DNA of 64,000 bases from Cyanobacteria bacterium P01_F01_bin.150 (GCA_039189765.1 JBCCYL010000023.1:14915-78914), one strand, 5' to 3'; positions 9,356 to 32,536 are shown, numbered from the stretch's first letter. A program made the numbers and translations. The notes: generated from the sequence alone by a model not told the origin.

Positions 9356-9370
9356 AGTCAACAAAGCAAC

Positions 9371-12672: not shown

Positions 12673-12723
12673 GTTTCACACCGATTCATCTTGCAGTTTT
12701 TAGAGGTTTACCTAGCTAATCAC

Positions 12724-14314: not shown

Positions 14315-17300
14315 CTATTCATGACTAGTGGGTAATCCTAAGGCTCTACGAATCTTGAATGAAGCCGAGCGCAAACGCCAAAACTTACTTGTCTTCATTG
14401 CAGCAATCGTGCCTTCAGCATCTAGCAGTTGGCTGCTTGCTTTGCTCAATTGGGTTTCAAGTTCCTGAGTTCTACCCTCTTTCTCTTGTAGTCGCCCTTC
14501 AAGATGCTGAAGGGTGTTGGCTTTCTCTTGTAGCTGTCCTTCGAGAGATTGGATACGCTCTAATAACGAATTATCGGTTGCACGAATAGTACTGACGTTG
14601 CTATGACTATCGTTACCAGCATTGCTACTGATGTCGCTGGCGATCGCATTCCCATCACGTTGAAGCTTTCTAAACGTTTCCCAGATATATGAACCCACCT
14701 TGGGTGACTGATTTTCCAATTGCTTTCCAGTGTCCAAGAGGACTTGAGAGACGATCTTTGCCATATTTTCCCAAGAAAACTTTGCACACTGTTCAAATCC
14801 GGCCTGGACAAAATGTTGCCGGATCTCAGGATGCTGAACTTTGTATAGCGCATCAATCAGTTCGTTAATACTTGAGGTGTCCACATAAATAACTGCATCA
14901 CCTCCCACCTCTGGAATAGAAGAGTGACGACCAGTAATCACAGGACAGCCACAGGCCATTGCCTCAGCGATTGGCAACCCAAATCCTTCATAAAGAGATG
15001 GATACACCAAAGCGATCGCCCCTGAATAGGCGGCCTTTAAATCCTCGTCACTTAAGCCAATAACAACCGTCTCAATACCATCGGACAAAGTTTGCAACTC
15101 TGGCTCTAGCTGAGGCTGACCACCCACGCAAACTACCGCAAACTCACTTTTATTAAGCAGTTGCGATAAAGCTCGAAAGAAGAAAACAGCATTTTTGTAT
15201 CCATTAACGCCAGTCCGATCCCCTACCATCAGGAAGTAAGGCTTATCAACACCGATCTTAGCCCTAACCTGCTGAATCTCATCCGGGCTAGCTGGAGAAA
15301 ACACCTGCTTGATACCACAGTGGGCAACAGTCACAGTCTCTGGATCAATCGCAGGGAAGAACTGACATAAATCCTTCGCCGTACTTTGGGAGATAGTAAT
15401 GTAGCTAGAGGCATGAACAATACCTAAATGCTTTTCCTTCCAGCCCGTCTGGGTTAAGTCTGCCCCGATGACTTCAGGAATCATGTCGTAGGCCATGAAA
15501 ACTGACGGCGTTGTTAAAGGAGTGGTGTAGTAGCTAGAAATAAACAGGTCAGCACCTTTTTCATCACAGATTTCCTGCAACATTTCAGCATCAGCAGCAG
15601 TTTTATCGTAATCATAGGCACGCACAGGGCGATATCTTAACCCTGGGATTCTAGGAGCAGTACCGTCTCTATCTAAAATGACTAGATGCTCAGCAAAGCC
15701 TGTTTTAACCCATTCCTTCATCAAAGAACGCCACACCTGGGCAATACCTGATTCACCAAACTGGAAGAACACACCATCAATTACGATCTGGGGAAATGGC
15801 TTCTTTATGGTCTGACTACGATGCTGCATCTCTTCAAAAGTCAAAAATGTCCAATTATCTGATTCAGGCTCACGTGCAAGTAAGGGAACAATTCCGCTGG
15901 TCTGTGCGGGTTCGACTAATGTGTCATCATCAACCCAACCAAAATAATCGCGCAATAACACTGGGAAATCTTGCTGCTGTTGAAGCGTTTTCCACTGTGC
16001 AACTGCATCACTATAACCATAGTAGGATTCTTTGAATTTGAGCTGCATTTCTGTCACATAAGCAAAGTGCTGAAACACTAAATTTGCCCGTAGAGTTTCA
16101 GCGTGCAGAAAAGGCTTGACTCCAGCAACATCTTCCTCATCCCCATTCGGCAGAACACGAACAAGCTTTGGTGGCTCATGGGCAGCCCACTTCATTCCTG
16201 GCTCATACCGCCATACCCGCAACCATTCTTGAGCAGGATTTTGCGCATAACAGTTGCGACTGCTGATGATGAGCTGCTCTCCCACAAAATAATTACACCA
16301 GAAATATGCTGCTGTTTTGTCAGGACGATCGACAAACATTTGCCACAACGTATTGATTTGCTCTACAGTCCAAAGCTCATCAACATCAATCTGCCATAGT
16401 AAACAGCCTTCTTGAATGGATTGGAGCGGAGCATTAACCATCTCTCGCTTACCGTCCCAAAATTCGCCCTCAGGCTTTCGATAAATGGAAATGCTGTCAG
16501 GATAAGCTTCCGCTAGCTCATCAAGATACTCCTTTGTTCCATCATGACTGCGCCCCTGATGATGAACGTCATCAATCACCTGACCACCAAGGTCAACACT
16601 CCAAGCCGTATCGTGCTTTAAAGCCGCAACTCCCTCAACAATATGCCAGTGCCACCGGAACGGAAGCTGCTTTAGAACATCCAGGTGATAACGGATAAAC
16701 GGCTCACCATTGAGAACAATAGTAAAAAAATGAATAGGCATATCCGATTGGGAAGGTTGAGGCGATCGCAGTATTGGATATTGCTCAACCCGTTCAAAAA
16801 TCGAATAGCCATTGCGCAACGCAATGTTTTGCTCTATCAGGACGTAATTTGGATCATTTAAGAGACGATGATGACTGTTATAGTTTTTATAAGTGCAGAT
16901 ATCATCTAACAGTATGAACTTTGATCCGTAGACCTGCTCTAATTCTACCTCTCCTGTAAATTCTGAACCATCAATCAGCACTAAATCAAACCGCTCGATA
17001 TTCCGCTCTTTCTTAATAAGCTGAATTCCATTAGCAGAAACGCCGGAATTTCTAACATAGTTAACGTCTTGCTGCAACCAACCCACCACTTGTTCAACAG
17101 GATATTGATTGAGGGGAGTTTGCTTTGAATGATAGAACTGCTCAACCTGAAGTGGATCCGGAAAAGCCTCTAAATCAACCGAAGAAACGTTATAGCAATG
17201 CACAAACGAGTCGCTTTCGTAGTGGCTTTTCAGTGATTCAAAACGCGGCTTCGAGACCTCCATACAAAATAGTTGAGGAGAATTCGGATTTTTTCTCAAG

Positions 17301-17467
17301 CCCTTAACAAATGCTTCGGTGCTACCTTGCCCAGAGGATGAACCAATTTCTAAAACAGTCTTGACACTCGGGTCACAAGCAAATCGCTGGATCGCCTGAT
17401 AAAAATCATCATTTTTAATTTCAGGCGCAATAATATTATTAAGTTCTGAGTCAGATACTGAATTCAT
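14315..17467 (-). CDS. Multidomain glycosyltransferase (methyltransferase-like + GT-A-like + GT4 + coiled coil)
   Basis: VLEIGSSSG and LIDGSEF; LWQIDVDE; YPSLYEGFGLPIAEAMACGCPVI; ends TSKFWRLR; likely start ATG 17467. Confidence 0.88.
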   Translation of the reverse strand: MNSVSDSELNNIIAPEIKNDDFYQAIQRFACDPSVKTVLEIGSSSGQGSTEAFVKGLRKNPNSPQLFCMEVSKPRFESLKSHYESDSFVHCYNVSSVDLEAFPDPLQVEQFYHSKQTPLNQYPVEQVVGWLQQDVNYVRNSGVSANGIQLIKKERNIERFDLVLIDGSEFTGEVELEQVYGSKFILLDDICTYKNYNSHHRLLNDPNYVLIEQNIALRNGYSIFERVEQYPILRSPQPSQSDMPIHFFTIVLNGEPFIRYHLDVLKQLPFRWHWHIVEGVAALKHDTAWSVDLGGQVIDDVHHQGRSHDGTKEYLDELAEAYPDSISIYRKPEGEFWDGKREMVNAPLQSIQEGCLLWQIDVDELWTVEQINTLWQMFVDRPDKTAAYFWCNYFVGEQLIISSRNCYAQNPAQEWLRVWRYEPGMKWAAHEPPKLVRVLPNGDEEDVAGVKPFLHAETLRANLVFQHFAYVTEMQLKFKESYYGYSDAVAQWKTLQQQQDFPVLLRDYFGWVDDDTLVEPAQTSGIVPLLAREPESDNWTFLTFEEMQHRSQTIKKPFPQIVIDGVFFQFGESGIAQVWRSLMKEWVKTGFAEHLVILDRDGTAPRIPGLRYRPVRAYDYDKTAADAEMLQEICDEKGADLFISSYYTTPLTTPSVFMAYDMIPEVIGADLTQTGWKEKHLGIVHASSYITISQSTAKDLCQFFPAIDPETVTVAHCGIKQVFSPASPDEIQQVRAKIGVDKPYFLMVGDRTGVNGYKNAVFFFRALSQLLNKSEFAVVCVGGQPQLEPELQTLSDGIETVVIGLSDEDLKAAYSGAIALVYPSLYEGFGLPIAEAMACGCPVITGRHSSIPEVGGDAVIYVDTSSINELIDALYKVQHPEIRQHFVQAGFEQCAKFSWENMAKIVSQVLLDTGKQLENQSPKVGSYIWETFRKLQRDGNAIASDISSNAGNDSHSNVSTIRATDNSLLERIQSLEGQLQEKANTLQHLEGRLQEKEGRTQELETQLSKASSQLLDAEGTIAAMKTSKFWRLRSASFKIRRALGLPTSHE

Positions 17468-17492
17468 AGGTTCAAGGATTGGGACTTGAGTA

Positions 17493-18365
17493 CTAGAAAT
17501 TGGCAGGGTTGCCCAATTCCCCCCTAAGTTTCTCATACTTGGTGCACAATTCTTGATGTTCTGCTACGAGAGCTTCGTACTGTGCTTTCACTGCATCCCT
17601 CTCAGCTTCAGCCGATGCGAACCACTCCCGTAAATTGACTACAAATTCTTGAAACTTGAGCAATCTTCGATTAACCCAATATGATTCCTTGTAGAGGGGA
17701 AAATTATTTTGAATGCGATAGGACTCTGGAACAGCTAGACGGATTTGACTAGATAGGCCACCCGCATAATAAGAGGCCAACGTTCGAGGATAGTGACAGA
17801 GTTTTACAGACTCACTGTAGACCATGCGTAAGAACCATTCATAATCGGATGAAATACGATAGCTTTCATTGAACATGCCCACTCGTGACGAAAACAAGTT
17901 AGCTCTGGCTAAACTTGCTTGATGAGGAAGGCACCCGCAGATCATTTCATCAGGAATACTTTCGGGAGGTGGTGGCTCAACCAAAATTGTTTTCCCAGAT
18001 GGATAACGTACTTCCAAGTTTCCGTATAGGAAGTCACAAGTTGGATGCTGAGATAGAAACGATGCAGCATCTTCAATAGCTCTTTCATCCTGAAGATAAT
18101 CATCAGCATTGAGAAATCCGATAAAGTCTCCGGCTGCATATCGAATCCCTTTATTCATCGCTTCATAAATTCCTCCATCAGGTTCACTAATAAAGCAACT
18201 AATGCGGTGAGCATACTTTTGAATAATTTCTTTGGTGCCGTCGGTGGAATTTCCATCGACAACGATATATTCAGTATTAGGAAAGGTTTGATCAACGACA
18301 CTCTTAATCGCTGTTTCTATAAAATCCTCTGCATTTCTACATACAGTGATAATCGAAATCTTCAC
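17493..18365 (-). CDS. GT2 glycosyltransferase (WcaE-like)
   Basis: KISIITVCRN, VVDGNSTDGT, SEPDGGIYEAMNKGI, FLNADD; likely GTG 18365. Confidence 0.92.
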   Translation of the reverse strand: MKISIITVCRNAEDFIETAIKSVVDQTFPNTEYIVVDGNSTDGTKEIIQKYAHRISCFISEPDGGIYEAMNKGIRYAAGDFIGFLNADDYLQDERAIEDAASFLSQHPTCDFLYGNLEVRYPSGKTILVEPPPPESIPDEMICGCLPHQASLARANLFSSRVGMFNESYRISSDYEWFLRMVYSESVKLCHYPRTLASYYAGGLSSQIRLAVPESYRIQNNFPLYKESYWVNRRLLKFQEFVVNLREWFASAEAERDAVKAQYEALVAEHQELCTKYEKLRGELGNPANF

Positions 18366-18789
18366 AGGATAGTTAATCTCCAGTAGCAAGAGGAACAGAG
18401 CAATCATCACTAGAAGAGGTCTGAAAAGTTTTTAACTGTCAAAAGTTTTTGTCAGTGATACATGGATCCGCTCACACGTATTAATACGAAGACAGGCCCA
18501 ATACCAGCAAAGTTTAGATATGCGATACCAATCTATCTGCTACCAATATCACCAACCCTTCTCAGATATCTTCTTTATACCGAAAGTTGACCTTACGTCA
18601 TATCTCTAATCTACACCAAAACCTATTTTTTCTTTAAGCACGGACCAAAGCCTTTGCCATTTCCTGGATTTACTACTTTGCACAGATGCTATGGTACTAA
18701 CGGGCTTCTACTTTTACATTTCTATTTTTATTTCGCCCTTTAGTGCTTTCTCCTCATGTAGCAATAATCGATAACGTCCCTAATTGCGC

Positions 18790-19038: not shown

Positions 19039-20925
19039 TTACTCAACACTCTCTAAATATATTTGCTCTGACAAATCCTTTCGAATAAAAATTCTCAAAT
19101 TTGGGATATCAGCCTTTATCTCAGCATAACAAGGATTTATCTTGCAAAAATTTGGCATGGTAACGTGTTGTTCATAAGCCTCTTTCGCCTTCAACAACTG
19201 TGGATAGGAGGCAGATGTTGAATCAATCGATTGAGTAGGAACCGTCTTGTTTGTCATGACAACCACGTCATGTTGAGCCTCCCATTCGCTAAAAAATCCC
19301 CAGAATAGTGTTATTGTCCATTTCTCGTTAGAGGATACAAAAAACAGGGATGGATCATATGTAATATTGATGTGCCGATCTAGTTGTATTGAAATTTTAT
19401 TAAATAAGCCAATTAAGTAGTCATATTCTGCTTTCTTAGATTTAAATTCATATGTTTCTGAACGTTGTGAGTACTGAGTAAGCTTATGCTTAGTCTCAGC
19501 TAGCATATATGATGTAGCTGCTATTTGAAGGATGATAAATAAAATAAAAACAGCAAATTTTATGTTGCTTACCGATTTATTTTTTTTAAGGTATAAATAT
19601 GATTCTAATTCATAGATTTTTAGTAATCCTATGATAAAAAATACGATGCCAATATGGAGATAAAATCCCCAGAGTCTATCTACCAAGATAATGATTGGTA
19701 AAATAGAAAAAGATGACAATGTGACCAACACTAGACCGGGATACTGAGTCGGATTTGCTAAGAATTTTAACCTTGATTTTATTAGCGATATTAAAATTAA
19801 AAGAATACCCAATATGAAAATAATAAATAGAATGGCGGAGGGCACCTCAGACCAATCATCAAGAATAAATTCTGCCCAAGATAAAATACTAACTCTGCTA
19901 TCATCTGCTCCATGCCCAGTACTTAAGAATGTCCATTGCAACCAGGCTGAAGTTCCCGTAGGTATCTTTAAGACAGCAACGGGAACCGCTATAGCAAATC
20001 CAAATATAAAGACTCCGATAGTTTTAAGCCATGTTGATGGAAACCTCAAGATTTTATTTTTATCCATGAGGTGGGTAAGGCCAGGGCTTAGTATGCAAAA
20101 TACTCCAACTAGAATTGGGAGAAGTGTTGTTAATGTTTCTTTCGATAAATGATTTTCAATGCTGGGGATTTTTGTGCGATATTCTAGCAAACCATATGCA
20201 ATCTCATAGATTCCAAACCCTATAATAACAACTGGCAGTAAGAATTTATTGATATTTCTATTGCCGCAGATATTTGGAAATGACACCCATTGATTGAGCT
20301 TAAACTGTTGGATTAAAGATAATCCTATGATGAAGGGTAATGATGTAAAAACAGAAATTTTTGAGCCAAATGCTAAGCCGAAAAATATCCAGTAGTATCC
20401 AAATTTAAAGGAGTGTTTAAATGCCAGTATAAGGAATATAGAAAAAAACAAAAGTAATATTGGTTCAGGCTTAGGCATCGTTGCATAGTAGGATGTTGCC
20501 GGAAGAACCGTTAAAGTCCACAATCCTATTCCTCGAACGATCCAAGATTTGAGAAAATACAACGATAATATGATGTAAGCAGCTAGTTGGAATATTACCT
20601 GGGCCATCCGAGTTGCATAGATTTGCCCACTTGCGCCAAAGAGACGCTCTGGGATAGCGGCAATAAGGGCGGATGCATTCCATAAAATCCTCCCATATCG
20701 ATGATCGTCACCATCAATAACGGTATCAATCCAACTGTTCAAGTCTGATGGGTGGAGTAGTCTGTCCACACCGTCAAACGTAATGATTTCATCCATGAAC
20801 AAGACATAGCGACCATGTAGTAAATCCGAGTTAGCCTGATGGGATAGATACAGAGATACGATTAAAGCACCTGCAAAAAGTGCCACTCCAAGGAACCGAT
20901 CAATTTTAGACAGTGAGTTGGTCAT
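19039..20925 (-). CDS. Polytopic membrane protein, probable GT-C fold (lipid-donor) glycosyltransferase
   Basis: Many TM helices, acidic FMDE motif in the loop after TM1, PKPE motif, soluble C-terminal domain; markedly AT-rich. Confidence 0.6.
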   Translation of the reverse strand: MTNSLSKIDRFLGVALFAGALIVSLYLSHQANSDLLHGRYVLFMDEIITFDGVDRLLHPSDLNSWIDTVIDGDDHRYGRILWNASALIAAIPERLFGASGQIYATRMAQVIFQLAAYIILSLYFLKSWIVRGIGLWTLTVLPATSYYATMPKPEPILLLFFSIFLILAFKHSFKFGYYWIFFGLAFGSKISVFTSLPFIIGLSLIQQFKLNQWVSFPNICGNRNINKFLLPVVIIGFGIYEIAYGLLEYRTKIPSIENHLSKETLTTLLPILVGVFCILSPGLTHLMDKNKILRFPSTWLKTIGVFIFGFAIAVPVAVLKIPTGTSAWLQWTFLSTGHGADDSRVSILSWAEFILDDWSEVPSAILFIIFILGILLILISLIKSRLKFLANPTQYPGLVLVTLSSFSILPIIILVDRLWGFYLHIGIVFFIIGLLKIYELESYLYLKKNKSVSNIKFAVFILFIILQIAATSYMLAETKHKLTQYSQRSETYEFKSKKAEYDYLIGLFNKISIQLDRHINITYDPSLFFVSSNEKWTITLFWGFFSEWEAQHDVVVMTNKTVPTQSIDSTSASYPQLLKAKEAYEQHVTMPNFCKINPCYAEIKADIPNLRIFIRKDLSEQIYLESVE

Positions 20926-21114
20926 TCTACTTGCATGGTCTCCTGAAGAAAAGCAAAAATCTTGTAAAGTAGTCCAAACTGAAGTCTGAAGCAGTATTGA
21001 CTGTTCTTAGCATCAGCAGTTCTCCGATGACGCAAGAAACTGTCCTGCGTTTTTTGCATCTCAAATATGATATTAATTAAGAGCAATATTACTCTTTAAA
21101 GCGCAAGTATAGTC

Positions 21115-23271
21115 TTGACTATGAGCTTTTGGTTGGCCCTTCAATCTAATATCCCTATCACTGTTGAAGAAAAGCGATCGCTTCGAACCCTTCATTTCAG
21201 CCCTTTCTTCGTGATGGGATTAGGCATTCGTTTGCTCTTAATCTTAATAGCGTTTCCAAAGACACAGCAAGATTGGTTTCTACCCTTTATCTCTACCCCA
21301 CTTGCCTCCAAAATCCCAGCACTTTTGAATCCTTGGGGCACGTATCTCAGTTCTGGGGGAAATGCGTTGTCATTTCCCTATGGGATCATCATGTATTTGG
21401 CTTATTTACCTTTAACAGGATTGGGATGGCTGGTTGATCAAGGGTTACACATCAATTGGTTGGCGAAAGTCGGTTTTGGCCTGACATCGCTACTGTTTGA
21501 TTATGGGGTACTGATTGGCATTGCTTGCTTGGCTCGCAAGTATTCGGAAGGGCTTTTACTACTTACATACTGGTGCTCTCCAATTGTCATCTTCATTCTT
21601 TACTGGCATGGGCAATTAGACGTACTGCCCGTGCTGCTGCTTGTTTGGGGGCTGTGCCTGCTTCAATGGAATAGCCCAGTTGCAGGAGGTATTGCTTTAG
21701 GGTTTGCGATTTCTAGCAAGTTCAGCATGCTGATTGCGATACCCTTTATCCTAATTTATCTTTATCGCAATCTACGACTACGGGAACAGCTTTGGACCCT
21801 AGCTGGAACAACTCTCATAACGGTTCTATTAACCATTGTCCCTTTTTTACAATCACCTGCATTCGTTGAGATGGTGATGCAATCGCGCGAAATACAGCGC
21901 ATTTATACCGTTCATTTGAGCTATGGTGATGATTTAAAATTATTTTTGTTGCCGTTTATTTACATTCTTTCTCTCTATCTTGTTTGGCGCCTAAAACGCA
22001 TTACTCTTGACCTGTTTATTATTTCAGTTGGGTTGGGTTTCTTTTCCCTGCTTTTGCTGCTACCGCCGGGGGCAGGGTGGTTCTTATGGATTATGCCCTT
22101 CTTAACGTTTTATCAGCTACGGTCACGGGGTGACTATTTGTGGATTACCTTCCCATTTTTTGGCCTGTACCTCAGTTATGGCCTCTTGTATTCCACGGGT
22201 GCAGATATTCCACTGCTAAACCTTAATTTAAGCGATTCTCTGGCTATCAATACTGTTTTATCGACTTCGATCAATCGCTCTATCTTATTCACTCTGTTGC
22301 AAGCATTCGGGCTGCTGATTTGCGCTCGGATGTATGCATTTGGCATACGGCGTAATAACTACTATCGAATGAGTCGCCGACCGCTTGCCATTGGAATCAG
22401 CGGTGATTCGGGCTCTGGCAAGGATACTCTCGTTCAAGGGATTGCAGACATATTGGGCACAAACGCAATCAGCCCTGTTTCAGGTGATGACTATCACAAG
22501 TGGGAGCGAAATCATCCGATGTGGTCGGCACGAACTCACCTTAATCCCAATGCAAATAATCTTTCGCGTCTTACTCAAGACATCTCTGTTCTATTAGATG
22601 GTCAGTTCATCTGGAAGCGAGAGTACGACCATTCAACCGGAAAATTCACGAACCCGATAAAAATACCAAGTCGTGATTTTGTTATCGTTAGCGGTCTGCA
22701 TACGCTGTATCTCAAGAGACTTAGGGAGCAACTGGATCTGAAAATTTTCCTTGATATTGATGAGGATTTACGGATTCACTGGAAAGCGAAGCGTGATCAG
22801 ATAGACAGAGGACACAACCAGGCAGATGTGGCTGTTGCGATCGCCCAGCGCCAGCCAGATAGTCAGCAATTTATTCATAGTCAATCGCGCTATGCCGATC
22901 TGATTTTTAAGTTAGCTCCCGTCAATCCTAATTATCTGGAGGCTTATGGGCGATCGCCGCGATTAAAGCTCTTTGTACAGATGGCAAATGGATTTTTTCA
23001 TGAAAGCCTCGTACATAATCTTGTTGCTTTGTGCGGGATGCATGTTGATGTTGAGCAGTCTGAACACTTAGACTTCATTCATCTTTGTATTGAAGGCGAC
23101 GCTGATAAAGATGACATCTCAGAAATTGCTAGACTCTTGATTCCAAATTTAGATGACTTGGTCGTTAGGCAGCCAAATTGGTATGAGGGATGTTCTGGTT
23201 TAATGCAGGTTATTGTTCTGGCTCATATCTCAGATCGTCTACACCAAGGGAGAAACTACCGCCATGCTTAA
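21115..23271 (+). CDS. Fusion: GT-C-like (GT87/PIG-M-like) membrane domain + phosphoribulokinase/uridine kinase-family P-loop domain
   Basis: ~410 hydrophobic residues with FPYG, HGQLD, SKF motifs; then IGISGDSGSGKDT, GDDYHKWER, YDHSTGKF, KIFLD...W...RD...RG. Confidence 0.75.
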   Translation: MTMSFWLALQSNIPITVEEKRSLRTLHFSPFFVMGLGIRLLLILIAFPKTQQDWFLPFISTPLASKIPALLNPWGTYLSSGGNALSFPYGIIMYLAYLPLTGLGWLVDQGLHINWLAKVGFGLTSLLFDYGVLIGIACLARKYSEGLLLLTYWCSPIVIFILYWHGQLDVLPVLLLVWGLCLLQWNSPVAGGIALGFAISSKFSMLIAIPFILIYLYRNLRLREQLWTLAGTTLITVLLTIVPFLQSPAFVEMVMQSREIQRIYTVHLSYGDDLKLFLLPFIYILSLYLVWRLKRITLDLFIISVGLGFFSLLLLLPPGAGWFLWIMPFLTFYQLRSRGDYLWITFPFFGLYLSYGLLYSTGADIPLLNLNLSDSLAINTVLSTSINRSILFTLLQAFGLLICARMYAFGIRRNNYYRMSRRPLAIGISGDSGSGKDTLVQGIADILGTNAISPVSGDDYHKWERNHPMWSARTHLNPNANNLSRLTQDISVLLDGQFIWKREYDHSTGKFTNPIKIPSRDFVIVSGLHTLYLKRLREQLDLKIFLDIDEDLRIHWKAKRDQIDRGHNQADVAVAIAQRQPDSQQFIHSQSRYADLIFKLAPVNPNYLEAYGRSPRLKLFVQMANGFFHESLVHNLVALCGMHVDVEQSEHLDFIHLCIEGDADKDDISEIARLLIPNLDDLVVRQPNWYEGCSGLMQVIVLAHISDRLHQGRNYRHA

Positions 23272-24046
23272 ACAACTTAATGGCGACAAATCATCATTGA
23301 CTAGACCCGATGCGGTTCTGTTTGATACGGACAACACGCTTTACGCATATCCTCCTGCCAAAAAAAAGGCAGATCGTGCGGTAGAAGAGAAGGCTGGTAA
23401 CTTGCTGGGTATCACGCCAGAAGTATTTCGAATGGCCTATAAACAAGCAAGGCGTGAAATTAAAGACCAGTTAGGGCATACGGCCAGTAGCCATAGCCGC
23501 TTACTCTACTTCCAGAGAATGCTAGAACTGCTTGGATTTAAGGCACAACTGCTTATTGCCCTTGACTTAGAGCAAACTTTCTGGCGTACGTTTCTGGCTA
23601 ACGCGCCATTGTTTCCAGGGGTTATGGACGTATTGGATGATTTACGCAGTAACAATATTCCGATTGCAATCGTCACCGATCTAACCGCCCATATTCAACT
23701 TCGGAAGCTGACCTATTTTCATCTTGAAGAAACCTTTGATGCGGTGGTGACATCTGAGGAAGTGGGAGCTGATAAACCTGATCCACGAAATTTTGAACTA
23801 GTCCTTAAAAAGTTGAGCATAAGCTCTTATACTCAAATCTGGATGGTGGGAGATAACCCCGCAACAGACATCGTAGGGGGACGGCATATTAATGCAGTCA
23901 CATTTCAGAAAATTCATTCTGGTGTCCGCGTAGGAACAGGCAATGAAACGCCTGACTTTACATTTGAAAATTTTAATGAGTTAGGACGATGCATTATGGA
24001 TGTATTGTCTAGCACCGATTCTCAAAAGAAGGAACTTGCAAGATAA
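23264..24046 (+). CDS. HAD-superfamily hydrolase (phosphatase)
   Basis: FDTDNTL motif I, IVTD, KPDP, MVGDN..TD; ATG 23264 overlaps the upstream stop. Confidence 0.9.
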   Translation: MLKQLNGDKSSLTRPDAVLFDTDNTLYAYPPAKKKADRAVEEKAGNLLGITPEVFRMAYKQARREIKDQLGHTASSHSRLLYFQRMLELLGFKAQLLIALDLEQTFWRTFLANAPLFPGVMDVLDDLRSNNIPIAIVTDLTAHIQLRKLTYFHLEETFDAVVTSEEVGADKPDPRNFELVLKKLSISSYTQIWMVGDNPATDIVGGRHINAVTFQKIHSGVRVGTGNETPDFTFENFNELGRCIMDVLSSTDSQKKELAR

Positions 24047-24127
24047 GGGGATTCGTTTCAAAGTGAAACAAACTCAACGGTAGTGGAGGCGCTCCGCGTC
24101 CCCACTACGCGCCTAAAGTTGATATTC
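24047..24127 (+). repeat. Family 1 element, copy D
   Basis: GGGGATTCGTTTCAAAGTGAAAC ... CGCCTAAAGTTGATATTC; exact 8-bp flanking direct repeat CAAGATAA. Confidence 0.85.
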
Positions 24128-24159
24128 CAAGATAATAGCGATGTTAGTAATCGTGAATG

Positions 24160-24747
24160 CTAAAGTATCCATCGCTCAGGCATTTTGGTACAAACTGCAT
24201 CCATAATCATGTCTTGCTTTGTCAGCTCTAACTGTAAAGACTGGAGCATTTCTGGTGGATGGCTCTGTAGCTCAGGGGAGACTAAACATAGACGGAAGCC
24301 TGCGTCTTTAAGACGCTCATAGTCTTGCTTGGTAAGCGGAAATCGAGTAAATACATCAACCCATATCCATTGCACCATTCCCGCCAGGGTTAACGCAGTT
24401 TCAATCGACTCATATTCAGACACTCTGACCGCACATCGGGATTCCCCTAAGCGGGCAGTCTTAATCAGAAAAGGAAAGGACTGATCCAGAAAAAAGAAAT
24501 CTTGGATATTATGCTTGTCCATTAACGCTAGCAGTCGGTCTTCCAGTCCCTCTTCTTTTACGTTTAAGATAATTAATCCATGCTGATAGCCCATTAACCA
24601 TTCTTCCAGCGCGATCGCCTCCACAAACGGGTCGTGATGAACAACTAGCTTATCCCCATAGCTGCGAATATCAATTTCTACACCCCATTCGGGTCTGGTG
24701 TCTTTGAGCAAATCTAGAGTATTACGTCGATGATGAATAATAAGCAT
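24160..24747 (-). CDS. Glycerophosphodiester phosphodiesterase (PLC-like TIM barrel) family protein
   Basis: HRRN, GVEIDIR, VVHHDP, LNVKE, VSPEL, AVCT motifs. Confidence 0.75.
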   Translation of the reverse strand: MLIIHHRRNTLDLLKDTRPEWGVEIDIRSYGDKLVVHHDPFVEAIALEEWLMGYQHGLIILNVKEEGLEDRLLALMDKHNIQDFFFLDQSFPFLIKTARLGESRCAVRVSEYESIETALTLAGMVQWIWVDVFTRFPLTKQDYERLKDAGFRLCLVSPELQSHPPEMLQSLQLELTKQDMIMDAVCTKMPERWIL

Positions 24748-24852
24748 AGGTTGGCCACGAATGGAATGTCATATACTGTTGATTGGCTCATATATTGAGG
24801 TACTCTACACCCCAATATCTTGTTAAATTCTTCTTAAACCTTGGATTGAGAA

Positions 24853-25572
24853 TTAACGGCTCTCTATAAGCTGTAGGCGGCGACGCAATTCCCAGGTAAA
24901 GTCAATTGTACGTTTAATGAACTTTAGCTTAGCTTTCCAATTAATATTCCATCGAGAAATTCCGTGCGCTCGTTCCCCAAAACGAACCTCAAATCGAATA
25001 ATTTTAAACTTACTTTTGAGGGCCAGATAATAGCAATACAAGTCAAGGGAAAAATCATAAGGAGGATCCTGCCAACGGTTAAAAAAGCTAGCTGAGAAAA
25101 GATTAGGCTGGGCATTAATTTCCCATAGTGGAACCCGTAAAACTATCGTTTCAAATATAGCCATCCCAATGGTAAAAAATACGTCACTCAATGGACGCCC
25201 TTTTCGAGAGCCTTTGACATAAGTTTGCTCAGGATCTGCACTTTTTTCAAGCAGCCGTAATCCATCTAAAACATCTTTTGGGTCAGTCTGCATATCGGCA
25301 TGAGTCCAACCTAAAAACCGAGAGTTAGCAGCTTTTAGCCCTGCTAAAATTCCATATCCGTAGCCCTGATTAACCTCAACAATTACGGCCCTAGCAAAAG
25401 GGTAACTTGGCAACAGGTCCGCAAGCACAACCTGCGTATCGTCCGTCGAACCATTATCAACCAAGATGACTTCAACATCATCCCTATTCATCACCTGGGC
25501 AAAACGTTCCAGGATTAAAGGGATGTTTGGAGCTTCGTTGTAACATGGCAGCACAAGGGACAGCGTTTTCAT
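24853..25572 (-). CDS. GT2 glycosyltransferase, polyprenol-phosphate glycosyltransferase (DPM1/GtrB-like)
   Basis: LSLVLPCYNE, VDNGSTDDT, NQGYGYGI, HADMQTDP, F.ERAHG.S. Confidence 0.85.
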   Translation of the reverse strand: MKTLSLVLPCYNEAPNIPLILERFAQVMNRDDVEVILVDNGSTDDTQVVLADLLPSYPFARAVIVEVNQGYGYGILAGLKAANSRFLGWTHADMQTDPKDVLDGLRLLEKSADPEQTYVKGSRKGRPLSDVFFTIGMAIFETIVLRVPLWEINAQPNLFSASFFNRWQDPPYDFSLDLYCYYLALKSKFKIIRFEVRFGERAHGISRWNINWKAKLKFIKRTIDFTWELRRRLQLIESR

Positions 25573-25640
25573 GCTGATTAAAAGGTTATAGATGCTAAAG
25601 ATCAAGATGTGAGTAGCATAGCATCCGTTTGGCCTCGTTT

Positions 25641-26066
25641 CTAAGGACGATATTTTTGAGAGATATTCCGAGCATTCGGAGCCTTGAAGACAAGCAGCTT
25701 CATCCCCAAAAAATTGAGTAAGGCTGAGATGGAAGTGGAAACTAAAAATGCAATATTGATGCGAAATGAAAGACTAGTGGGCAGTAGCGACAGCATGTAA
25801 GCATTAACGCCAACGTTTACCACCAAGTTAGTTCCATAAACGGCAATAAATCGAAGAGCCTGTCTAATATTGGCAGATCCCGCTGAGAAGGTCCATGTGC
25901 GATTGACTTGATATGCGTAAGCCGTGCCGCATAGAAAACTGATTGCCTTGGCAAAAGATGGTGGCAACCAGAATAAAAGAGTTTTGTAGACCAATAAGTC
26001 AATAAGAACAGTACTGCCTCCTGTTAGGAGAAAGCGAAATAGCTGGGTGCGGGTTGATCTTGCCAT
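25641..26066 (-). CDS. GtrA family flippase
   Basis: RFLLTG..., VNRTWTF, LNFLGMKLLVF; four TM segments, 141 aa. Confidence 0.9.
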   Translation of the reverse strand: MARSTRTQLFRFLLTGGSTVLIDLLVYKTLLFWLPPSFAKAISFLCGTAYAYQVNRTWTFSAGSANIRQALRFIAVYGTNLVVNVGVNAYMLSLLPTSLSFRINIAFLVSTSISALLNFLGMKLLVFKAPNARNISQKYRP

Positions 26067-26102
26067 TGGTCAGAGCATCTGCAAATAAGGAAAGTCAGCG
26101 GT

Positions 26103-27761
26103 CTAAGATAGGGAGGGAGTAAGACGACTGGGGCGCATGGGTTCTAGGGCTGGCTGGCTCAGATTTGTTTTCTCTGAAGCATGCCAACGGTCGCCCTCCC
26201 ACCGATAGGGATGGCTGTCCCATTTATGAAAGCAAGATTGCCAGTACTCAAACGTTTTCAGGTCACTGGGTGTTCCCCAACAGAGATAATGATCAATCTC
26301 AAAAGTGACGCACTGGTAGCCGAGGGCGATCGCATCTTCAATGCAGCTATCAACATAGAACTCACCGTTTACGCGGCCATCTCGCTCAATCATCCGCTGG
26401 GCCGCAGCCTTAAAAATCTCTGTTGACCGGAAGGTAAAGGTACCTATGATGATAGGATCAGTCGCAGGGTCAGCTAACGGCTGTTTAACCGACACCCCTG
26501 TCACCCTATCACCCTCCGTTTTAACCCAGCCGTACATCTCTGGATGCTGAACTGCACCAGGATGACCACGCGTTACCCAGACAATGCAATCGACCTCTGG
26601 CCTATTGACGACCTGGGAAAATTGTTCTGGGTCAAATAAAACGCCATGATCGCAAGCGCTAATAGTTAAAGGCGCGGCATTGTCAATTTGATCGAGGGCC
26701 GCTAAGCAAGTCCGGGCTTGACCATCGGTCACAGCATCCAGCAGTGTAAAGGTGGGGTCAGTAAACTGTTCCTTAAGGATTCGGGTCAAGCCTTCGTTCG
26801 TTGCAGTGTGTTCTTTTAGGCAAACAAAGGCATAGTGCTGAGTTGCGGGTAAGCTATCTACAGCCTGCGCCACCATCGGCTTGACAGACACTGGAATTAA
26901 TGGCTTAGGGACCGTGTAGCCTGCGTTACGGAAGCGACTGCCGTGACCAGCCATGGGAATTAAAGTCGTTCCAGGCAACGGTTGTGCTGACGACGGTACA
27001 GACGTTATCAAATCTCGAAAGGCATTGGACCAGCGCTGGTATTCTTCTAGATCCTGGGGCGTGCCCCACTGCATAAAGTGCTGTAGTTCATAGACAGAGA
27101 CGGATAGTCCGGCCTGCACCATTAGGTTATAAACAACGCTGCAATAATATTCTCCTTTGACCTGAATATCCCGCTCCATCGTTTCCGTGAAAAAACGTTT
27201 TACGTAGCGCCCTTTGGCAAAATAGTAGGTGCCGCTGGAGGCAAACTCCTCCATTTTGTTATCTGTAAAGGGTTGCTTTTCCTGAATTTCTTGCATCCAC
27301 CCGTTTTCAACTCGCATAAATGCATAGTTGGTTTTTCCTAGAGAATGGGGATGAAATCCTTTATAAGCAGGCACACAGCCATCGGCTTGGCAGTCTTTGA
27401 CCCACTGCTTAAAGTGATGGAAATCCCAATAGCAAGTAAAGTCGCAATAGTTAACGATGGTCGGCGTTTCATCATCGATAACATCAAACGCCTGACTTAC
27501 CGCATATACGGGACCTTTCTTGTGAGGGGCGATCGGCACAATTTTTCCGGTGGGACAATACCGATACAAAATATCGGTCATTGCCGTGGTTTCCAAATGG
27601 TCTTGATTACAGATAAAAACAACATCAGTTTCCCCAGGAAACATATCCACCACATGGGCAATAATGGGCTTGCCTTCAACCTCAATCAGCGGTTTTGGCA
27701 CTGTGTAGCCTGCTCGCCGAAATCGTTCCCCAAACCCTGACATTGGAATAATAATTTTCAT
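26103..27761 (-). CDS. Tandem double nucleotidyltransferase (two NTP_transferase domains)
   Basis: IIPMSGFGERF..GY..PKPLI and LIPMAGHGSRF..GY..PKPLI; each domain ends GE[YF]Y...WGTP.DL. Confidence 0.88.
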   Translation of the reverse strand: MKIIIPMSGFGERFRRAGYTVPKPLIEVEGKPIIAHVVDMFPGETDVVFICNQDHLETTAMTDILYRYCPTGKIVPIAPHKKGPVYAVSQAFDVIDDETPTIVNYCDFTCYWDFHHFKQWVKDCQADGCVPAYKGFHPHSLGKTNYAFMRVENGWMQEIQEKQPFTDNKMEEFASSGTYYFAKGRYVKRFFTETMERDIQVKGEYYCSVVYNLMVQAGLSVSVYELQHFMQWGTPQDLEEYQRWSNAFRDLITSVPSSAQPLPGTTLIPMAGHGSRFRNAGYTVPKPLIPVSVKPMVAQAVDSLPATQHYAFVCLKEHTATNEGLTRILKEQFTDPTFTLLDAVTDGQARTCLAALDQIDNAAPLTISACDHGVLFDPEQFSQVVNRPEVDCIVWVTRGHPGAVQHPEMYGWVKTEGDRVTGVSVKQPLADPATDPIIIGTFTFRSTEIFKAAAQRMIERDGRVNGEFYVDSCIEDAIALGYQCVTFEIDHYLCWGTPSDLKTFEYWQSCFHKWDSHPYRWEGDRWHASEKTNLSQPALEPMRPSRLTPSLS

Positions 27762-27781
27762 AGTCCCGTTATTTTTATCCG

Positions 27782-28843
27782 TTATGCGGCCATTTCCAAC
27801 GCTTTACGATACTTTTCTGCATCCCAATCGGTTAGTTCTAAACATTGCTGATCCGACAGGAGATGCACATCAGTCCCACATGGCACCCGAAGTAAGACAT
27901 CTGCCTGGGCTTGTAGCATTGCTTCGGTCGCAGGGGATGCACCGTTCAACAAAATCACGCCTACCTTGGGAATAATCACGTAGGTAATGTCTTGCTGCCA
28001 CTTTTCAGACACGGTTGCCACATAGTCTGGGATGTTGTTGGTTTCAGTTGCAACAACAGGTCGTACACCACAAAATACAACATGGTCGGGATAGGCAGGA
28101 TTGCATTGTGCTAGCTCAAGGGTCCGCTCATCGGTGGCGATCGCCTGAATAACGGGTGCTTTAGGTAGAAATGCACCAGGAATAGTGTCCACCACAGCCT
28201 GAAGCTGGCTTAAATCAGGCGGGGAATACGATCTGGGTTCAAGATGTAAGCGCTGAATAACTTCTGCCTGCAAAGCTTCAGCCGATTGCAGAGTGTCACC
28301 CCCAACCACTAGTCCATGATTTTCTAGGATTAACACATCGACTCTTGCGTCACCTTTGACGGTGCGAGTATCGCCCACAACAGAGGCGATCGCCCTCGTC
28401 AAAGGTTTACCAGGTCGGCAGTAGGGAATCCACTGCCACGATAGTCCCCGTAGCTTCTCTGCCATCCTATCCTGACTGCCCATCGGTAACGTATGGGCAA
28501 TAACGTCTACAGAATGGCAATGCAAAACAGCGCGATGGGGCATTAACGTATGTAGCGTCGTTTCAATGGAGGGCCGCAGGGATGAACCAGACAATGATTT
28601 AAAGGGTCTGCTAAAGCTAGATGGACTCTCTATTTCATCCCAAATCTCTGCCAAATCTAGCGGAAGGAAAATGTCGTCAGTCAAAGCATTGGCCAACGAC
28701 TTCCCTGATGCTTTAACCCATAACACTCCATATTCTTTGATAGATGTGTTGCCACCAGAGGCTTGAATTAATGACGAATCAGCCCCCATCTGAGCGGAGA
28801 CTTCTCGAAGATACTGTAGATCTTCAGGCTCTTTAATATCCAT
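27782..28843 (-). CDS. Class II aldolase/adducin family protein (rhamnulose-1-P aldolase-like)
   Basis: GGNTSIK, VKASG, RPSIETTLH, VLHCHS, LENHGL, PDHVVF; likely start ATG 28843. Confidence 0.85.
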   Translation of the reverse strand: MDIKEPEDLQYLREVSAQMGADSSLIQASGGNTSIKEYGVLWVKASGKSLANALTDDIFLPLDLAEIWDEIESPSSFSRPFKSLSGSSLRPSIETTLHTLMPHRAVLHCHSVDVIAHTLPMGSQDRMAEKLRGLSWQWIPYCRPGKPLTRAIASVVGDTRTVKGDARVDVLILENHGLVVGGDTLQSAEALQAEVIQRLHLEPRSYSPPDLSQLQAVVDTIPGAFLPKAPVIQAIATDERTLELAQCNPAYPDHVVFCGVRPVVATETNNIPDYVATVSEKWQQDITYVIIPKVGVILLNGASPATEAMLQAQADVLLRVPCGTDVHLLSDQQCLELTDWDAEKYRKALEMAA

Positions 28844-28938
28844 AACGACTGCGATAAGCAAACGCCTCGCTGATTTTGGTGCAAATCTTACCACACCAGA
28901 GTGGTGACCGCTACAGATTTTCTTAAGAAACCTCACGA

Positions 28939-30912
28939 TTAGGCAGGATAAATGCGGAGGCGACGATTGGGTTCCTCGCCAAAACTGGATGACTTGAGTC
29001 GATAGTGCTCAATCAGTTCATGCTGCATCTTGCGGATATTGGCCGAACGGGGTAGAAGTTCCACGGGTTGTCCCTTGGGCAGGACAATTTGTTCAACCGC
29101 CAGACGAGCTTCTTCCAAAGCTTCCAGCTCATTTTCATTACCATTTCTACTGAACAGGGTTAGGTTAATTGGCTCGTCAACTCCACCCTCATCGATTCGT
29201 AGGATCCGCCGTAGTGCCCGAATCATCTGGGGCATATTGTTCGACTTAACGGTGTAGATCGGCAACTCCCGAACCTTTGCTAAATGACGCAGTTTGGAGT
29301 GATTTTTGACGTGACTCCTTAGCGCCAGTACGGCATCTGCACTATCCAGATCTTTAGTCAGAACTACAGGCATTTCCAATGTTTGAATCACTTGTTCAAG
29401 ACTATGACGACTTACTGCGTAGGGATAGACATGCAGCGGCAAATCTTCGCCATTGGGTCCCATCTCTAACCCGTCTTGAGCAATGGGAGTAGAGTCTTGC
29501 TCAAGCGTTTGCCCTGTTGAAGCCTGGGATGATCGAACTGAATTTCGAGCGGCAAAGGATTCACTCAATAACTTATCAAACTGCTGATGGGGACTAGCGT
29601 ACTGGGGTGGCACCACCGCAGTAGATAACGGCACACCGTTAAACCCAGCCTGGTCAGAGGCAGGCAGAGGATTCATGCGGCCTGAAATGCGCCAACCCTT
29701 TTTTCTTTTCGATCGTTTTCCATTAGACCAGCCCACACTTGAGGCTGGCGCAGTGGGCGGATAGGGAACATCAGGCTGCTCACGAGTGACTTCTACCTTG
29801 CCAGACTCTTTAACTGCCCGTACCTGAGGGTTAGGCAATCGCCCCCTCAACAAACTATCCACGGTATTGGACACATTATCGTGAACCGTCCAGCGATATC
29901 GCTCCAACATTTCAATGGCAATCTCAAAAGTAGGAGGAGCCTTACGCTCTAGGACACTCTTCTGGCTACCCCGGCGGCGGGCCTCATCATCACCGAGGGT
30001 GACAGACTGGATTCCCCCCACTAAATCCGATAGGGTTGGATTTTTAATCAGGTTTTCAATCTGGTTACCGTGGGCAGTCCCTACAAGCTGAACCCCTCGC
30101 TCGGCAATCGTACGAGCCGCTAAAGCTTCTAATTCGGTGCCAATTTCATCAATAACCACGACCTCAGGCATGTGATTTTCCACGGCCTCAATCATCACCT
30201 GATGCTGTAGCTCGGGACGGGCCACCTGCATACGACGGGCACGACCAATGGCAGGGTGGGGAATATCACCATCTCCAGCAATCTCATTAGAGGTGTCAAT
30301 GATAACGACTCGCTTGCCCAAGTCATCTGCCAAAACTCGGGCAATCTCCCGTAAGGCAGTCGTTTTACCTACGCCAGGGCGACCTAGAAGAAGGATGGAC
30401 TGGCCTAGACCCACCAAATCCTGAATCATGCCGATGGTGCCAAAAATAGCCCGTCCCACTCGACACGTCAGACCAATAACCTCCCCTGCTCGGTTGCGCA
30501 TGGCGCTAATTCGATGCAAGGTACGCTCAATTCCCGCCCGATTATCGCCACTAAACTGGCCAATTTGATCGACACAAGCATTTATATCGTCTGCCGTAAT
30601 CAGGGTTTCGGAAATATATTCAGCACGATCAGGAAAGCGAACTTCGGGCAGACGCCCTAAATCCATGATCACTTCGACTAAACGGTCTTTATCCGGATGG
30701 TCCACGATCGCTTTACGAATATGAGCTGGAAAAATGGCAAGCAGCTGCTCTAAGTCATCTGCAGCCACTCGCTCGACCATTTCTAAATTGTCTAAAGGGT
30801 TATTTTCCACAGCCATCTCCGGCGTAGAATCTCCTTCAGAGTCGTTAGCAATGTTTTTTGAAAATCGAGCATCAGGGCGGGAATAGGACGAATCGTGACG
30901 GTTTAAGGCCAT
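28939..30912 (-). CDS. ycf45: Ycf45 / SpoIIIAA-like AAA ATPase with R3H domain
   Basis: GRPGVGKTT, DTSNEIAGDGD, IDEIG, GTAHG; C-terminal R..QH..IE.Y.L.S.S.GEEP.RR. Confidence 0.9.
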   Translation of the reverse strand: MALNRHDSSYSRPDARFSKNIANDSEGDSTPEMAVENNPLDNLEMVERVAADDLEQLLAIFPAHIRKAIVDHPDKDRLVEVIMDLGRLPEVRFPDRAEYISETLITADDINACVDQIGQFSGDNRAGIERTLHRISAMRNRAGEVIGLTCRVGRAIFGTIGMIQDLVGLGQSILLLGRPGVGKTTALREIARVLADDLGKRVVIIDTSNEIAGDGDIPHPAIGRARRMQVARPELQHQVMIEAVENHMPEVVVIDEIGTELEALAARTIAERGVQLVGTAHGNQIENLIKNPTLSDLVGGIQSVTLGDDEARRRGSQKSVLERKAPPTFEIAIEMLERYRWTVHDNVSNTVDSLLRGRLPNPQVRAVKESGKVEVTREQPDVPYPPTAPASSVGWSNGKRSKRKKGWRISGRMNPLPASDQAGFNGVPLSTAVVPPQYASPHQQFDKLLSESFAARNSVRSSQASTGQTLEQDSTPIAQDGLEMGPNGEDLPLHVYPYAVSRHSLEQVIQTLEMPVVLTKDLDSADAVLALRSHVKNHSKLRHLAKVRELPIYTVKSNNMPQMIRALRRILRIDEGGVDEPINLTLFSRNGNENELEALEEARLAVEQIVLPKGQPVELLPRSANIRKMQHELIEHYRLKSSSFGEEPNRRLRIYPA

Positions 30913-30939
30913 AAATTCAAGGACTAATAGTCGATAGAC

Positions 30940-32397: not shown

Positions 32398-32536
32398 CCT
32401 TAGCGGGTAATCACGACTCAGAACACCCATTGGGATGCCCCTTATGGTCAGTGTACTACGATCTCCAAAAGTTCTGCACGGAGGGCTTAGCATTTCGTCA
32501 AGCGTTTACCCTGGCCGTATTCCAGAATACACCGAA

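Follow-up and report, generated by a model that had tools for sequence, protein, structure and literature searches.

What do the eight clustered genes at positions 19039-28936 of a 64,000-nucleotide stretch of DNA from Cyanobacteria bacterium P01_F01_bin.150 (GCA_039189765.1 JBCCYL010000023.1:14915-78914; the whole stretch is referred to below as the window) make, and where do they deliver it? The first-pass annotation had read them, at 19039..28843, as an eight-gene module that builds an activated (keto)sugar and attaches it through a lipid carrier. All eight open reading frames (ORFs) are present, and HMM and structure searches bore out every one of the fold or family assignments, six through Pfam and NCBIfam (PRK, HAD, GT2, GtrA, NTP_transferase in two matched stretches, and Aldolase_II) and two through the fold. 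The end coordinate 28843 is likely the start of the aldolase-like gene, whose ORF itself runs to 28936. We think it probable that the genes form a self-contained, horizontally mobile cassette that decorates an envelope glycan outside the cytoplasmic membrane, using a donor of its own made from a pentulose phosphate. This interpretation is supported in outline and strengthened at the entry steps, and the cassette is real, widely shared and apparently unstudied. Its parts are as follows.

19039-20925, minus strand: predicted second GT-C glycosyltransferase, a 628-aa membrane protein (fold match)
21115-23271, plus strand: fusion gene, membrane domain plus phosphoribulokinase (PRK) domain, 718 aa
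21115-22359, plus strand: GT-C-like membrane domain of the fusion, ~residues 1-415 (weak ALG3 match, profile)
22366-23271, plus strand: PRK-like kinase domain of the fusion, ~residues 418-718 (PF00485)
23213-24046, plus strand: HAD phosphatase (best family NF053830; likely start 23264)
24160-24747, minus strand: GDPD-fold protein, 195 aa (predicted fold)
24853-25605, minus strand: putative DPMS/GtrB/ArnC-type GT2 (PF00535; likely start 25569)
25641-26066, minus strand: GtrA-family small membrane protein (PF04138)
26103-27761, minus strand: tandem double nucleotidyltransferase, 552 aa (PF00483 and PF12804)
27782-28936, minus strand: class II aldolase/epimerase-family protein (PF00596; likely start 28843, 353 aa)

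Conservation of the gene neighbourhood across phyla was examined with relatives of the fusion protein in other genomes, of which a one-genome-per-species scan gave 108; the best 80 of these 108 loci were searched for each partner by tblastn (cut-off 1e-5) within 10 kb of the fusion gene. The GDPD-fold protein was found near the fusion in 75 of the 80 loci, the HAD phosphatase and the GT2 in 70 each, the tandem nucleotidyltransferase in 66, the aldolase-like protein in 59 and GtrA in 37, as against 0-3 loci for the window's unrelated neighbour genes, and several of the misses were contigs ending early. The clustering is far above chance expectation. The titles of the loci name at least seven phylum-level groups, and collinearity is conserved across them, the usual order on one strand being aldolase-like, nucleotidyltransferase, GtrA, GT2, GDPD-fold, fusion, HAD. 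In the window the fusion and HAD genes are inverted relative to this order and converge on the remaining cassette genes, the HAD gene probably begins at 23264, still inside the end of the fusion gene, and the 628-aa GT-C gene is divergent from the fusion gene, for which the database gene call begins two codons after the ORF start at 21115. A promoter and terminator scan of 18.3-29.2 kb returned fewer sites than were found in shuffled sequence. By label, the hosts comprise Cyanobacteria including Prochlorococcus, nine acidobacterial bins, Eisenbacteria, Peribacteria, Dehalococcoidia, Manganitrophaceae, a Chitinophaga-labelled bin, and many Alpha-, Beta- and Gammaproteobacteria (Lysobacter, Sphingomonas, Rhodopseudomonas, Pseudoroseomonas, Pelagibacteraceae). 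Five acidobacterial genomes had the nucleotidyltransferase away from the core; in four of them an orthologue (54-57% identical) was found elsewhere, with an aldolase-like gene beside it.

Shared reading frames gave further links between the genes. GtrA and GT2 share one open frame in 5 loci and the nucleotidyltransferase and GtrA in 2, and the GDPD-fold domain occurs in natural fusions to the tandem nucleotidyltransferase (in both orders), to GT2, to GT61 and to a phosphatase of the inositol-monophosphatase (IMPase) family. Such fusions, as predicted from the gene sequences, tie the parts of the cassette together. A methyltransferase occupied the slot of GtrA in 17 loci. The 628-aa protein itself was found near the fusion in only 2 of the 80 loci, but another large polytopic protein stood at the cassette edge in 43 of the 51 loci whose flanks extend 2 kb or more on either side (by a crude hydropathy count), and in 22 loci that protein was of the GT87 family. 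The unit is therefore best described as seven conserved genes plus a variable second GT-C: the proposed eight-gene module holds for seven genes, conserved in order across phyla, and the eighth is a variable accessory.

The entry to the pathway was approached through the kinase and the phosphatase. The kinase domain matched PF00485 at 3.3e-34 and scored 210.6 bits on the phosphoribulokinase model NF005655 (uridine kinase model, 91.9 bits). When its profile (window 22342-23268) was searched against the PDB, the phosphoribulokinase 6hzk was matched at 1.4e-46 and 9qkn at 3e-46, with uridine kinases at ~1e-25. Its best solved relatives over the whole domain were 9qkn, deposited as 'uridine kinase', and 9qko and 9qkp, deposited as 'cyanobacteria-specific phosphoribulokinase'; a literature search found no paper behind the 9qkn/9qko entries. 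Aligned to the Synechococcus PRK, the domain keeps the P-loop and the DDYH, YDH, GLH, KRD and RGH motifs, and it is 36% identical to the same genome's own PRK. Judged by sequence, the kinase is nearer phosphoribulokinases than uridine kinases. Two genomes (G406 and G409) each contained two matches above the PRK cut-off, among which there may be a cyanobacteria-specific paralogue.

The HAD phosphatase scored 181.3 bits over its full length on NF053830, the ribulose-1,5-bisphosphate (RuBP) 5-phosphatase family, the second-best family reaching 95 bits; on the same NF053830 model, the runner-up among the genome's HAD proteins scored 53 bits. Residues D21, D23, T25, K171 and D202 are invariant in 24 sequences. 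The haloarchaeal RuBP 5-phosphatase is described as strictly specific for RuBP, with a ribulose 1-phosphate product that was observed cyclised, and its gene lies in an operon with that of a class II ribulose 1-phosphate aldolase (excerpted text of PMC9700705). Taken together, the family resemblances point to an entry route from ribulose 5-phosphate through the 1,5-bisphosphate to the 1-phosphate.

Comparison of hosts was consistent with such an entry. Among 74 fusion proteins compared, kinase motifs were lost only in L003 (partly), L004 and L005, all cyanobacterial and two labelled Prochlorococcus, where the fusion gene lies at ~10001-12100 or 8019-10148 and the P-loop and other motifs are gone, giving pseudokinase versions. 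The motifs were intact in the window, in the cyanobacterial L006 and in 69/69 non-cyanobacterial fusion proteins. In the kinase-dead cassettes the membrane domain is conserved, and the HAD phosphatase keeps every catalytic residue and is 62-73% identical to that of the window. The RuBisCO large subunit was found in all four cyanobacterial host genomes (in one, as end-of-contig fragments only) and canonical PRK in two of the four. In 5/5 sampled non-cyanobacterial hosts the fusion was the only strong PRK-family match, one host adding a 200-aa ORF at 104 bits. The simplest reading of this comparison, which covers a small sample of related members, is that the kinase would supply RuBP and be dispensable where the Calvin cycle provides RuBP already. 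The earlier suggestion that the donor is tapped from Calvin-cycle intermediates is thus possible for the cyanobacterial hosts only; most hosts are labelled as heterotrophs, and in those sampled their own cassette kinase is the sole strong PRK match. As for the broader claim of a dedicated donor built from a ribulose phosphate, the RuBP-phosphatase-like HAD, the PRK-like kinase and the decay of the kinase in cyanobacteria only all support it; that support does not extend to a ketose end product.

Next in the proposed sequence stands the aldolase-like protein, which matched PF00596 at 1.4e-17. Its best NCBIfam matches were the N-terminal halves of bifunctional rhamnulose-1-phosphate aldolase/dehydrogenases, and its profile best matched the solved structure 3m4r (1.1e-22), followed by fuculose-1-phosphate aldolases. 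E94, H108, H110, H176 and the GGN-S-K residues G30-G31-N32-S34-K36 are invariant in 25 sequences; by analogy to fuculose-1-phosphate aldolase, we take these to be the catalytic glutamate, the zinc histidines and the phosphate-binding motif. From dihydroxyacetone phosphate and glycolaldehyde, aldolases of the rhamnulose type form L-xylulose 1-phosphate and those of the fuculose type D-ribulose 1-phosphate, so epimerisation at C4 by cleavage and rejoining is a reasonable guess. PF00483 and PF12804 each matched the tandem nucleotidyltransferase in two stretches. Across 26 sequences the GxGxR, PK and D motifs are invariant in both halves, and the protein's matches to GlmU, RmlA and HddC-type enzymes were weak only. 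Against the PDB, the nucleotidyltransferase and aldolase profiles gave family-level matches from which no substrate can be inferred.

The 195-aa GDPD-fold protein had no Pfam, NCBIfam or PDB match by sequence or profile, and 0/29 members of its family matched any relevant Pfam family at E up to 1. Its AlphaFold2 model has a pLDDT of 95, and the top Foldseek matches were all GDPD structures (3ks6 at E 1.4e-8; range 1.4e-8 to 1e-5, TM score 0.63-0.75). According to this model the protein is GDPD-fold, of an undescribed family. No other protein of the cassette is as well conserved: identity across phyla is 47-68%, and 41 alignment columns are invariant. Residues H6, R7, E24, D26 and H38, invariant in the family alignment, resemble the catalytic His/Arg and metal-binding Glu/Asp pattern of GDPD enzymes and may correspond to it. 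Distant GDPD-fold paralogues, 26-32% identical, occur on a Scandinavium plasmid (L093, 8962-10231) and a Rhizobium plasmid (L094, 8896-11825) directly before an HAD phosphatase and with no kinase. Nearby genes annotated as GT2 there are homologues of the cassette nucleotidyltransferase (27-33% identity), and the Scandinavium set lies within an ABC-transporter glycan locus. For these kinase-less sets, entry from bisphosphates present in every cell would fit.

The remaining genes concern transfer across and beyond the membrane. The GT2 matched PF00535 at 6.8e-20, and its family profile found the Pyrococcus furiosus dolichyl-phosphate mannose synthase (DPMS) 5mlz at 7.5e-16 over positions 2-224 of 237, this archaeal enzyme being the sole full-length match among solved structures, with ArnC and GtrB next. 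By family it would be a polyprenyl-phosphate glycosyltransferase of the DPMS/GtrB/ArnC type. GtrA matched PF04138 at 1.4e-18 over 117/117 profile positions and is proposed to be a flippase or a partner of the GT2. The N-terminal domain of the fusion had only a weak Pfam match to ALG3; among 120 listed relatives, 20 carry a precomputed PF09594 (GT87) match and 4 an ALG3 match, and positions 76-215 of the membrane-domain profile matched GPI mannosyltransferase 1 (E 8.9e-7). This domain is accordingly classed as putatively GT-C-like.

The 628-aa protein had no Pfam or NCBIfam match, and one of the 77 homologues found is named RgtA/B/C/D-like by UniRef. Its AlphaFold2 model (pLDDT 91.6) aligned with the GT-C enzymes ALG12 (VIA-align, Z 22.2, 429 residues aligned), Pmt (Z ~20.8), ArnT (Z 20.6, 427 aligned) and STT3 (Z ~20), the GT-C alignments spanning ~360-470 residues, with unrelated control chains at Z of at most 6.6. 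D45-E46 are invariant in the first loop. Going by the model, the protein is a true GT-C of a variable family. A profile-profile comparison of the two GT-C families gave a probability of 23.7% only, and close kinship between them is not supported. The gene for the 628-aa protein falls where the window's AT content is highest (GC 0.37 at 18-20 kb, as against 0.43-0.52 further into and beyond the cassette), which could reflect separate acquisition or merely membrane-protein composition. With a DPMS-type GT2, a PF04138 GtrA and two GT-C-like membrane proteins, the three-component logic of GT2, GtrA and GT-C that had been proposed for the locus was upheld, and neither a lack of co-occurrence elsewhere nor a lack of the GT-C fold, named beforehand as grounds for abandoning the proposal, was found.

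We propose the following pathway. The fusion kinase would, by its family and motifs, convert ribulose 5-phosphate to RuBP, and the HAD phosphatase, by its closest characterised family, would remove the 5-phosphate to give ribulose 1-phosphate, able to close to a furanose. In a speculative third step, the aldolase-family protein might alter the configuration; C4 epimerisation by a retro-aldol/aldol route, giving L-xylulose 1-phosphate, would be the simplest way. The tandem nucleotidyltransferase and the GDPD-fold protein, whose coupling is supported by the natural fusions, would act in concert to make a nucleotide-activated pentose that bears its phosphate on the anomeric carbon, by chemistry that is likewise speculative. 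By family membership, the GT2 and GtrA would load the sugar on polyprenyl phosphate and move it across the membrane, where, judging from context, one or both GT-C proteins would transfer it to the acceptor. Our best guess is that the delivered sugar is a ketopentofuranose, ribulose or xylulose; the mode of activation and the retention of the ketose are only what we infer.

Several findings weigh against this pathway. The kinase and HAD scores lie below the curated NCBI cut-offs (210.6 against 236 on NF005655, with positions 3-209 of 326 matched; 181.3 against 330 on NF053830), so by that standard neither protein is an orthologue of its namesake. The arginine of the canonical PRK motif DPRANN, which we take to have a role in binding ribulose phosphate, is an asparagine in the window's kinase. 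The kinase-dead proteins number just three and are partly related, and canonical PRK was found in neither of the two Prochlorococcus single-cell assemblies, where RuBisCO and the record titles carry the argument. The ribulose 1-phosphate (Ru1P) aldolase model was barely matched by the aldolase-like protein (E 0.0058), whose gene was not detected within 10 kb in 21 of the 80 loci; GtrA was detected in fewer than half (37/80). In the first loop of the fusion's GT-C domain no acidic residue is invariant, and at both semi-conserved aspartate positions of this loop the window's protein has asparagine; the domain may thus not be the catalytic transferase. A further difficulty is chemical. As the GT2 is of the DPMS type, its donor should carry the diphosphate on the anomeric carbon. 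The phosphate of ribulose 1-phosphate adjoins the anomeric carbon and is not on it, and a simple nucleoside diphosphate (NDP) derivative could not be used by a DPMS-like GT2; we know of no NDP-ketopentose. Two solutions are conceivable, isomerisation to an aldopentofuranose 1-phosphate and migration of the phosphate from C1 to C2.

If the first of these applied, the framework of lipid carrier, GT-C and RuBP entry would be unchanged and the sugar would be an aldopentofuranose, e.g. D-arabinofuranose or ribofuranose: the GDPD-fold or the aldolase-like protein would make a pentofuranose 1-phosphate from ribulose 1-phosphate, followed by an ordinary NDP-pentofuranose. Methylthioribose-1-phosphate and ribose-1,5-bisphosphate isomerases catalyse the reverse of this conversion; the anomeric-phosphate problem would be removed with known chemistry, and the nucleotidyltransferase does belong to a sugar-1-phosphate family. 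GT-C enzymes, moreover, are known users of polyprenyl-phosphate pentofuranoses (PMC11127046). However, no member of the e2b2 isomerase family is present in the cassette, a bisphosphate would be a long detour to ribose 1-phosphate, and all solved, genome-sequenced glycans with pentofuranose side chains already had a system based on phosphoribosyl pyrophosphate (PRPP) (excerpted text of PMC11127046). Since every such glycan has a PRPP-based system, no known structure calls for an aldopentofuranose route, and we regard this possibility as unlikely, if still to be reckoned with.

A more radical departure would have GT2, GtrA and GT-C transfer a common sugar from a common NDP-sugar, with the kinase, HAD, aldolase-like and GDPD-fold proteins serving another purpose, either a shunt from RuBP to dihydroxyacetone phosphate and glycolaldehyde, as in haloarchaea, or the supply of a non-sugar substituent. 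The kinase, HAD and class II aldolase do mirror the final steps of the haloarchaeal non-carboxylating pentose bisphosphate pathway, and GDPD enzymes ordinarily hydrolyse glycerophosphodiesters, but a catabolic shunt explains neither the fusion of the kinase to a GT-C domain nor the fusions of the GDPD domain to nucleotidyltransferases and glycosyltransferases. The aldolase-like protein is also not close to the Ru1P aldolase family, and on a 33-kb plasmid the cassette is accompanied by nothing else metabolic and reads as a single pathway; a common sugar is on this evidence quite improbable. Still less probable, in our estimate, is a kinase acting on a nucleoside or a membrane-bound substrate, its resemblance and that of the HAD to PRK and RuBP phosphatase being at the level of family only. 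The sub-threshold scores of both proteins, the deposition of the top single PDB match, 9qkn, as a uridine kinase, and the fusion to a membrane domain, which could signal a membrane-bound substrate, would be in keeping with this. PRK models and structures, however, beat uridine kinases by ~20 orders of magnitude in E-value, 9qkn scores beside the cyanobacteria-specific phosphoribulokinases 9qko and 9qkp, and loss of the motifs only in RuBisCO-bearing hosts would be hard to explain otherwise.

For the preferred reading, a donor built by the cassette from a pentulose phosphate, the second solution can be spelled out. GDPD enzymes activate the hydroxyl next to a phosphodiester, via a cyclic phosphate. 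A ketose 1,n-bisphosphate would lose its remote phosphate, and one nucleotidyltransferase half would make a C1-linked NDP-ketose; the GDPD-fold enzyme would close a 1,2-cyclic phosphate with the adjacent anomeric hydroxyl and open it to the 2-phosphate, from which the second nucleotidyltransferase half would make a true NDP-ketofuranose donor. That the cassette is the missing route to nucleotide-activated ketofuranoses by way of a 1,2-cyclic phosphate is a long shot, slightly more doubtful to us than the aldopentofuranose route. If true, it would explain the tandem nucleotidyltransferase, its fusions to GDPD and the kinase-less paralogue sets, which could start from fructose or sedoheptulose bisphosphate, and it would account for how the xylulofuranose and fructofuranose residues of bacterial O-antigens and capsules are made.

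The cassette is both widespread and patchy. Among 1.84 billion proteins, the GDPD-fold family accounts for 334 representative clusters (E 1e-30), and 9 of 401 sampled cyanobacterial genomes matched it at 1e-10; besides the window's own genome, three of those nine gave strong matches (35-50% identity). With so few strong matches, the cassette is rare and patchy in Cyanobacteria. Phage records contained no relative of the 195-aa protein. Plasmid-borne copies were found in Azospirillum brasilense, Hirschia baltica and E. coli. The E. coli plasmid NZ_CP145712.1 (L091) carries the whole eight-gene set at 6022-17325, with genes overlapping one another; this plasmid is 33 kb long and of IncR type, and the cassette ends adjoining an IS26 transposase. 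A second E. coli plasmid, whose host was isolated from a bullfrog, has an identical copy, and these were the only two carriers among 5,426 complete E. coli genomes (near and distant DNA search modes), both on plasmids. The Scandinavium paralogue region had no match among the complete E. coli genomes. In public annotation the cassette genes bear generic names (uridine kinase, HAD family hydrolase, PI-PLC/GDPD family protein). On the Hirschia plasmid pHbal01 (L095), a second glycosyltransferase and GtrA pair lies beside the cassette at 8652-11185; accompanied by a gene of the UDP-glucuronate decarboxylase family, it may form a separate system for a lipid-linked pentose. The 753-aa 'GT2' encoded next to the aldolase-like gene of this plasmid could be a fused nucleotidyltransferase.

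What might the acceptor be? Upstream in the window, at 4347-18410 (4-18 kb), lies a gene set typical of ABC-transporter-dependent O-polysaccharide synthesis, with a Wzt-like ABC ATPase (6276-7268), an NAD-dependent epimerase-family protein, a formyltransferase, a hexapeptide transferase, an 841-aa methyltransferase, an FkbM methyltransferase with a coiled coil, a 1073-aa GT4 and a GT2 with a coiled-coil tail. From this context, the product of the neighbouring ABC-type O-polysaccharide genes is probably the acceptor. On the Azospirillum plasmid, the cassette is embedded in a cluster that also has gmd, GT1/GT4 and methyltransferase genes and those for an ABC permease and ATPase, and in a Herbaspirillum-labelled bin it is followed by genes for GDP-mannose dehydratase and one reductase-like protein. 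Downstream (28939-34963), the window encodes an R3H/AAA ATPase with a phosphotyrosine-phosphatase-like domain, the circadian input protein LdpA and PurL, none of which recurred beside the cassette in the other loci. The LdpA gene is in keeping with a cyanobacterial origin of the 10.6-Mb genome.

Glycans with xylulose offer a suggestive parallel. In Yersinia enterocolitica O:10, L-xylulofuranose forms the side chains of a D-rhamnan, and the excerpted text describes an O-antigen locus that lacks genes for xylulose (PMC11380512); the E. coli O95 and O97 antigens contain xylulofuranose, according to a review (excerpted text of PMC7685785), and other xylulose glycans are listed in PMC8707391 (likewise an excerpt). 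The rarity of the cassette in E. coli (2/5,426) lends no support to a link with the O95 and O97 xylulose antigens and does not exclude one either, the membership of such strains in the genome collection not being determined; the missing support is a point against the proposal. Should the proposal be true, the cassette would represent a third way to lipid-linked donors used beyond the cytoplasm, alongside UDP-hexose/GtrB and PRPP/UbiA-type synthases, and a Calvin-cycle enzyme family would gain a role in envelope biogenesis in heterotrophs. It bears on how bacteria activate ketopentoses such as xylulose, and there is a modest chance that the cassette reveals a new class of sugar nucleotide. Ketofuranosides are acid-labile, and such decorations may therefore be missed in glycans hydrolysed with mild acid. 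As the cassette is compact and plasmid-borne in E. coli, the pathway is directly testable.

No account of the cassette was found in the literature searched, the nearest published system being the PRPP-based one, which is different. The general logic is that of Gtr-type O-antigen glycosylation, with which the cassette shares a DPMS-like GT2 predicted to act on polyprenyl phosphate, GtrA and GT-C, as well as mobility, a position beside O-antigen genes and a variable GT-C; ArnC/ArnT and DPMS-based systems are relatives of the same logic. Unlike Gtr systems, which use a housekeeping UDP-sugar, the cassette brings five further enzymes: the PRK-like kinase, the RuBP-phosphatase-like HAD, the class II aldolase-like protein, the tandem nucleotidyltransferase and the GDPD-fold protein. 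Its GT-C proteins usually number two, and one of them is fused to the kinase. The five extra conserved enzymes, as assigned here, argue for a dedicated donor. In the activation of Kdo and sialic acid, an HAD phosphatase likewise dephosphorylates a keto-sugar phosphate before a nucleotidyltransferase activates the 2-ketose; the nucleotidyltransferases there, however, are of another family and make CMP-sugars for Leloir-type transferases, with no GDPD-fold enzyme and no lipid-phosphate carrier.

With PRPP-based pentofuranose systems, the cassette would share the addition of a pentose outside the cytoplasm, a polyprenyl-phosphate donor and GT-C (PMC11127046), and, with these and mycobacterial decaprenyl-phospho-arabinose synthesis alike, an HAD phosphatase that removes a 5-phosphate and auxiliary epimerases that diversify the sugar. 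That three-component system consists of a UbiA-like polyprenyl phosphoribose synthase with an HAD phosphatase, a MATE flippase and a GT136 GT-C, and a term search of the excerpted text returned no mention of ketose, ribulose, xylulose or nucleotidyltransferase (PMC11127046). By Pfam and NCBIfam the cassette proteins include no UbiA-like synthase and no MATE protein, and instead have GT2 and GtrA; no PRPP would be used, GT2 would build the lipid donor out of a nucleotide sugar, and entry is apparently through ribulose bisphosphate. The haloarchaeal pentose bisphosphate pathway, finally, shares the nearest characterised family of the HAD phosphatase and a class II aldolase-family gene alongside it; that pathway is catabolic, fed by ribose-1,5-bisphosphate isomerase and ends in triose (excerpted text of PMC9700705), whereas in the cassette RuBP would come from a PRK-like kinase, the aldolase is of another subfamily and the setting is one of glycosylation.

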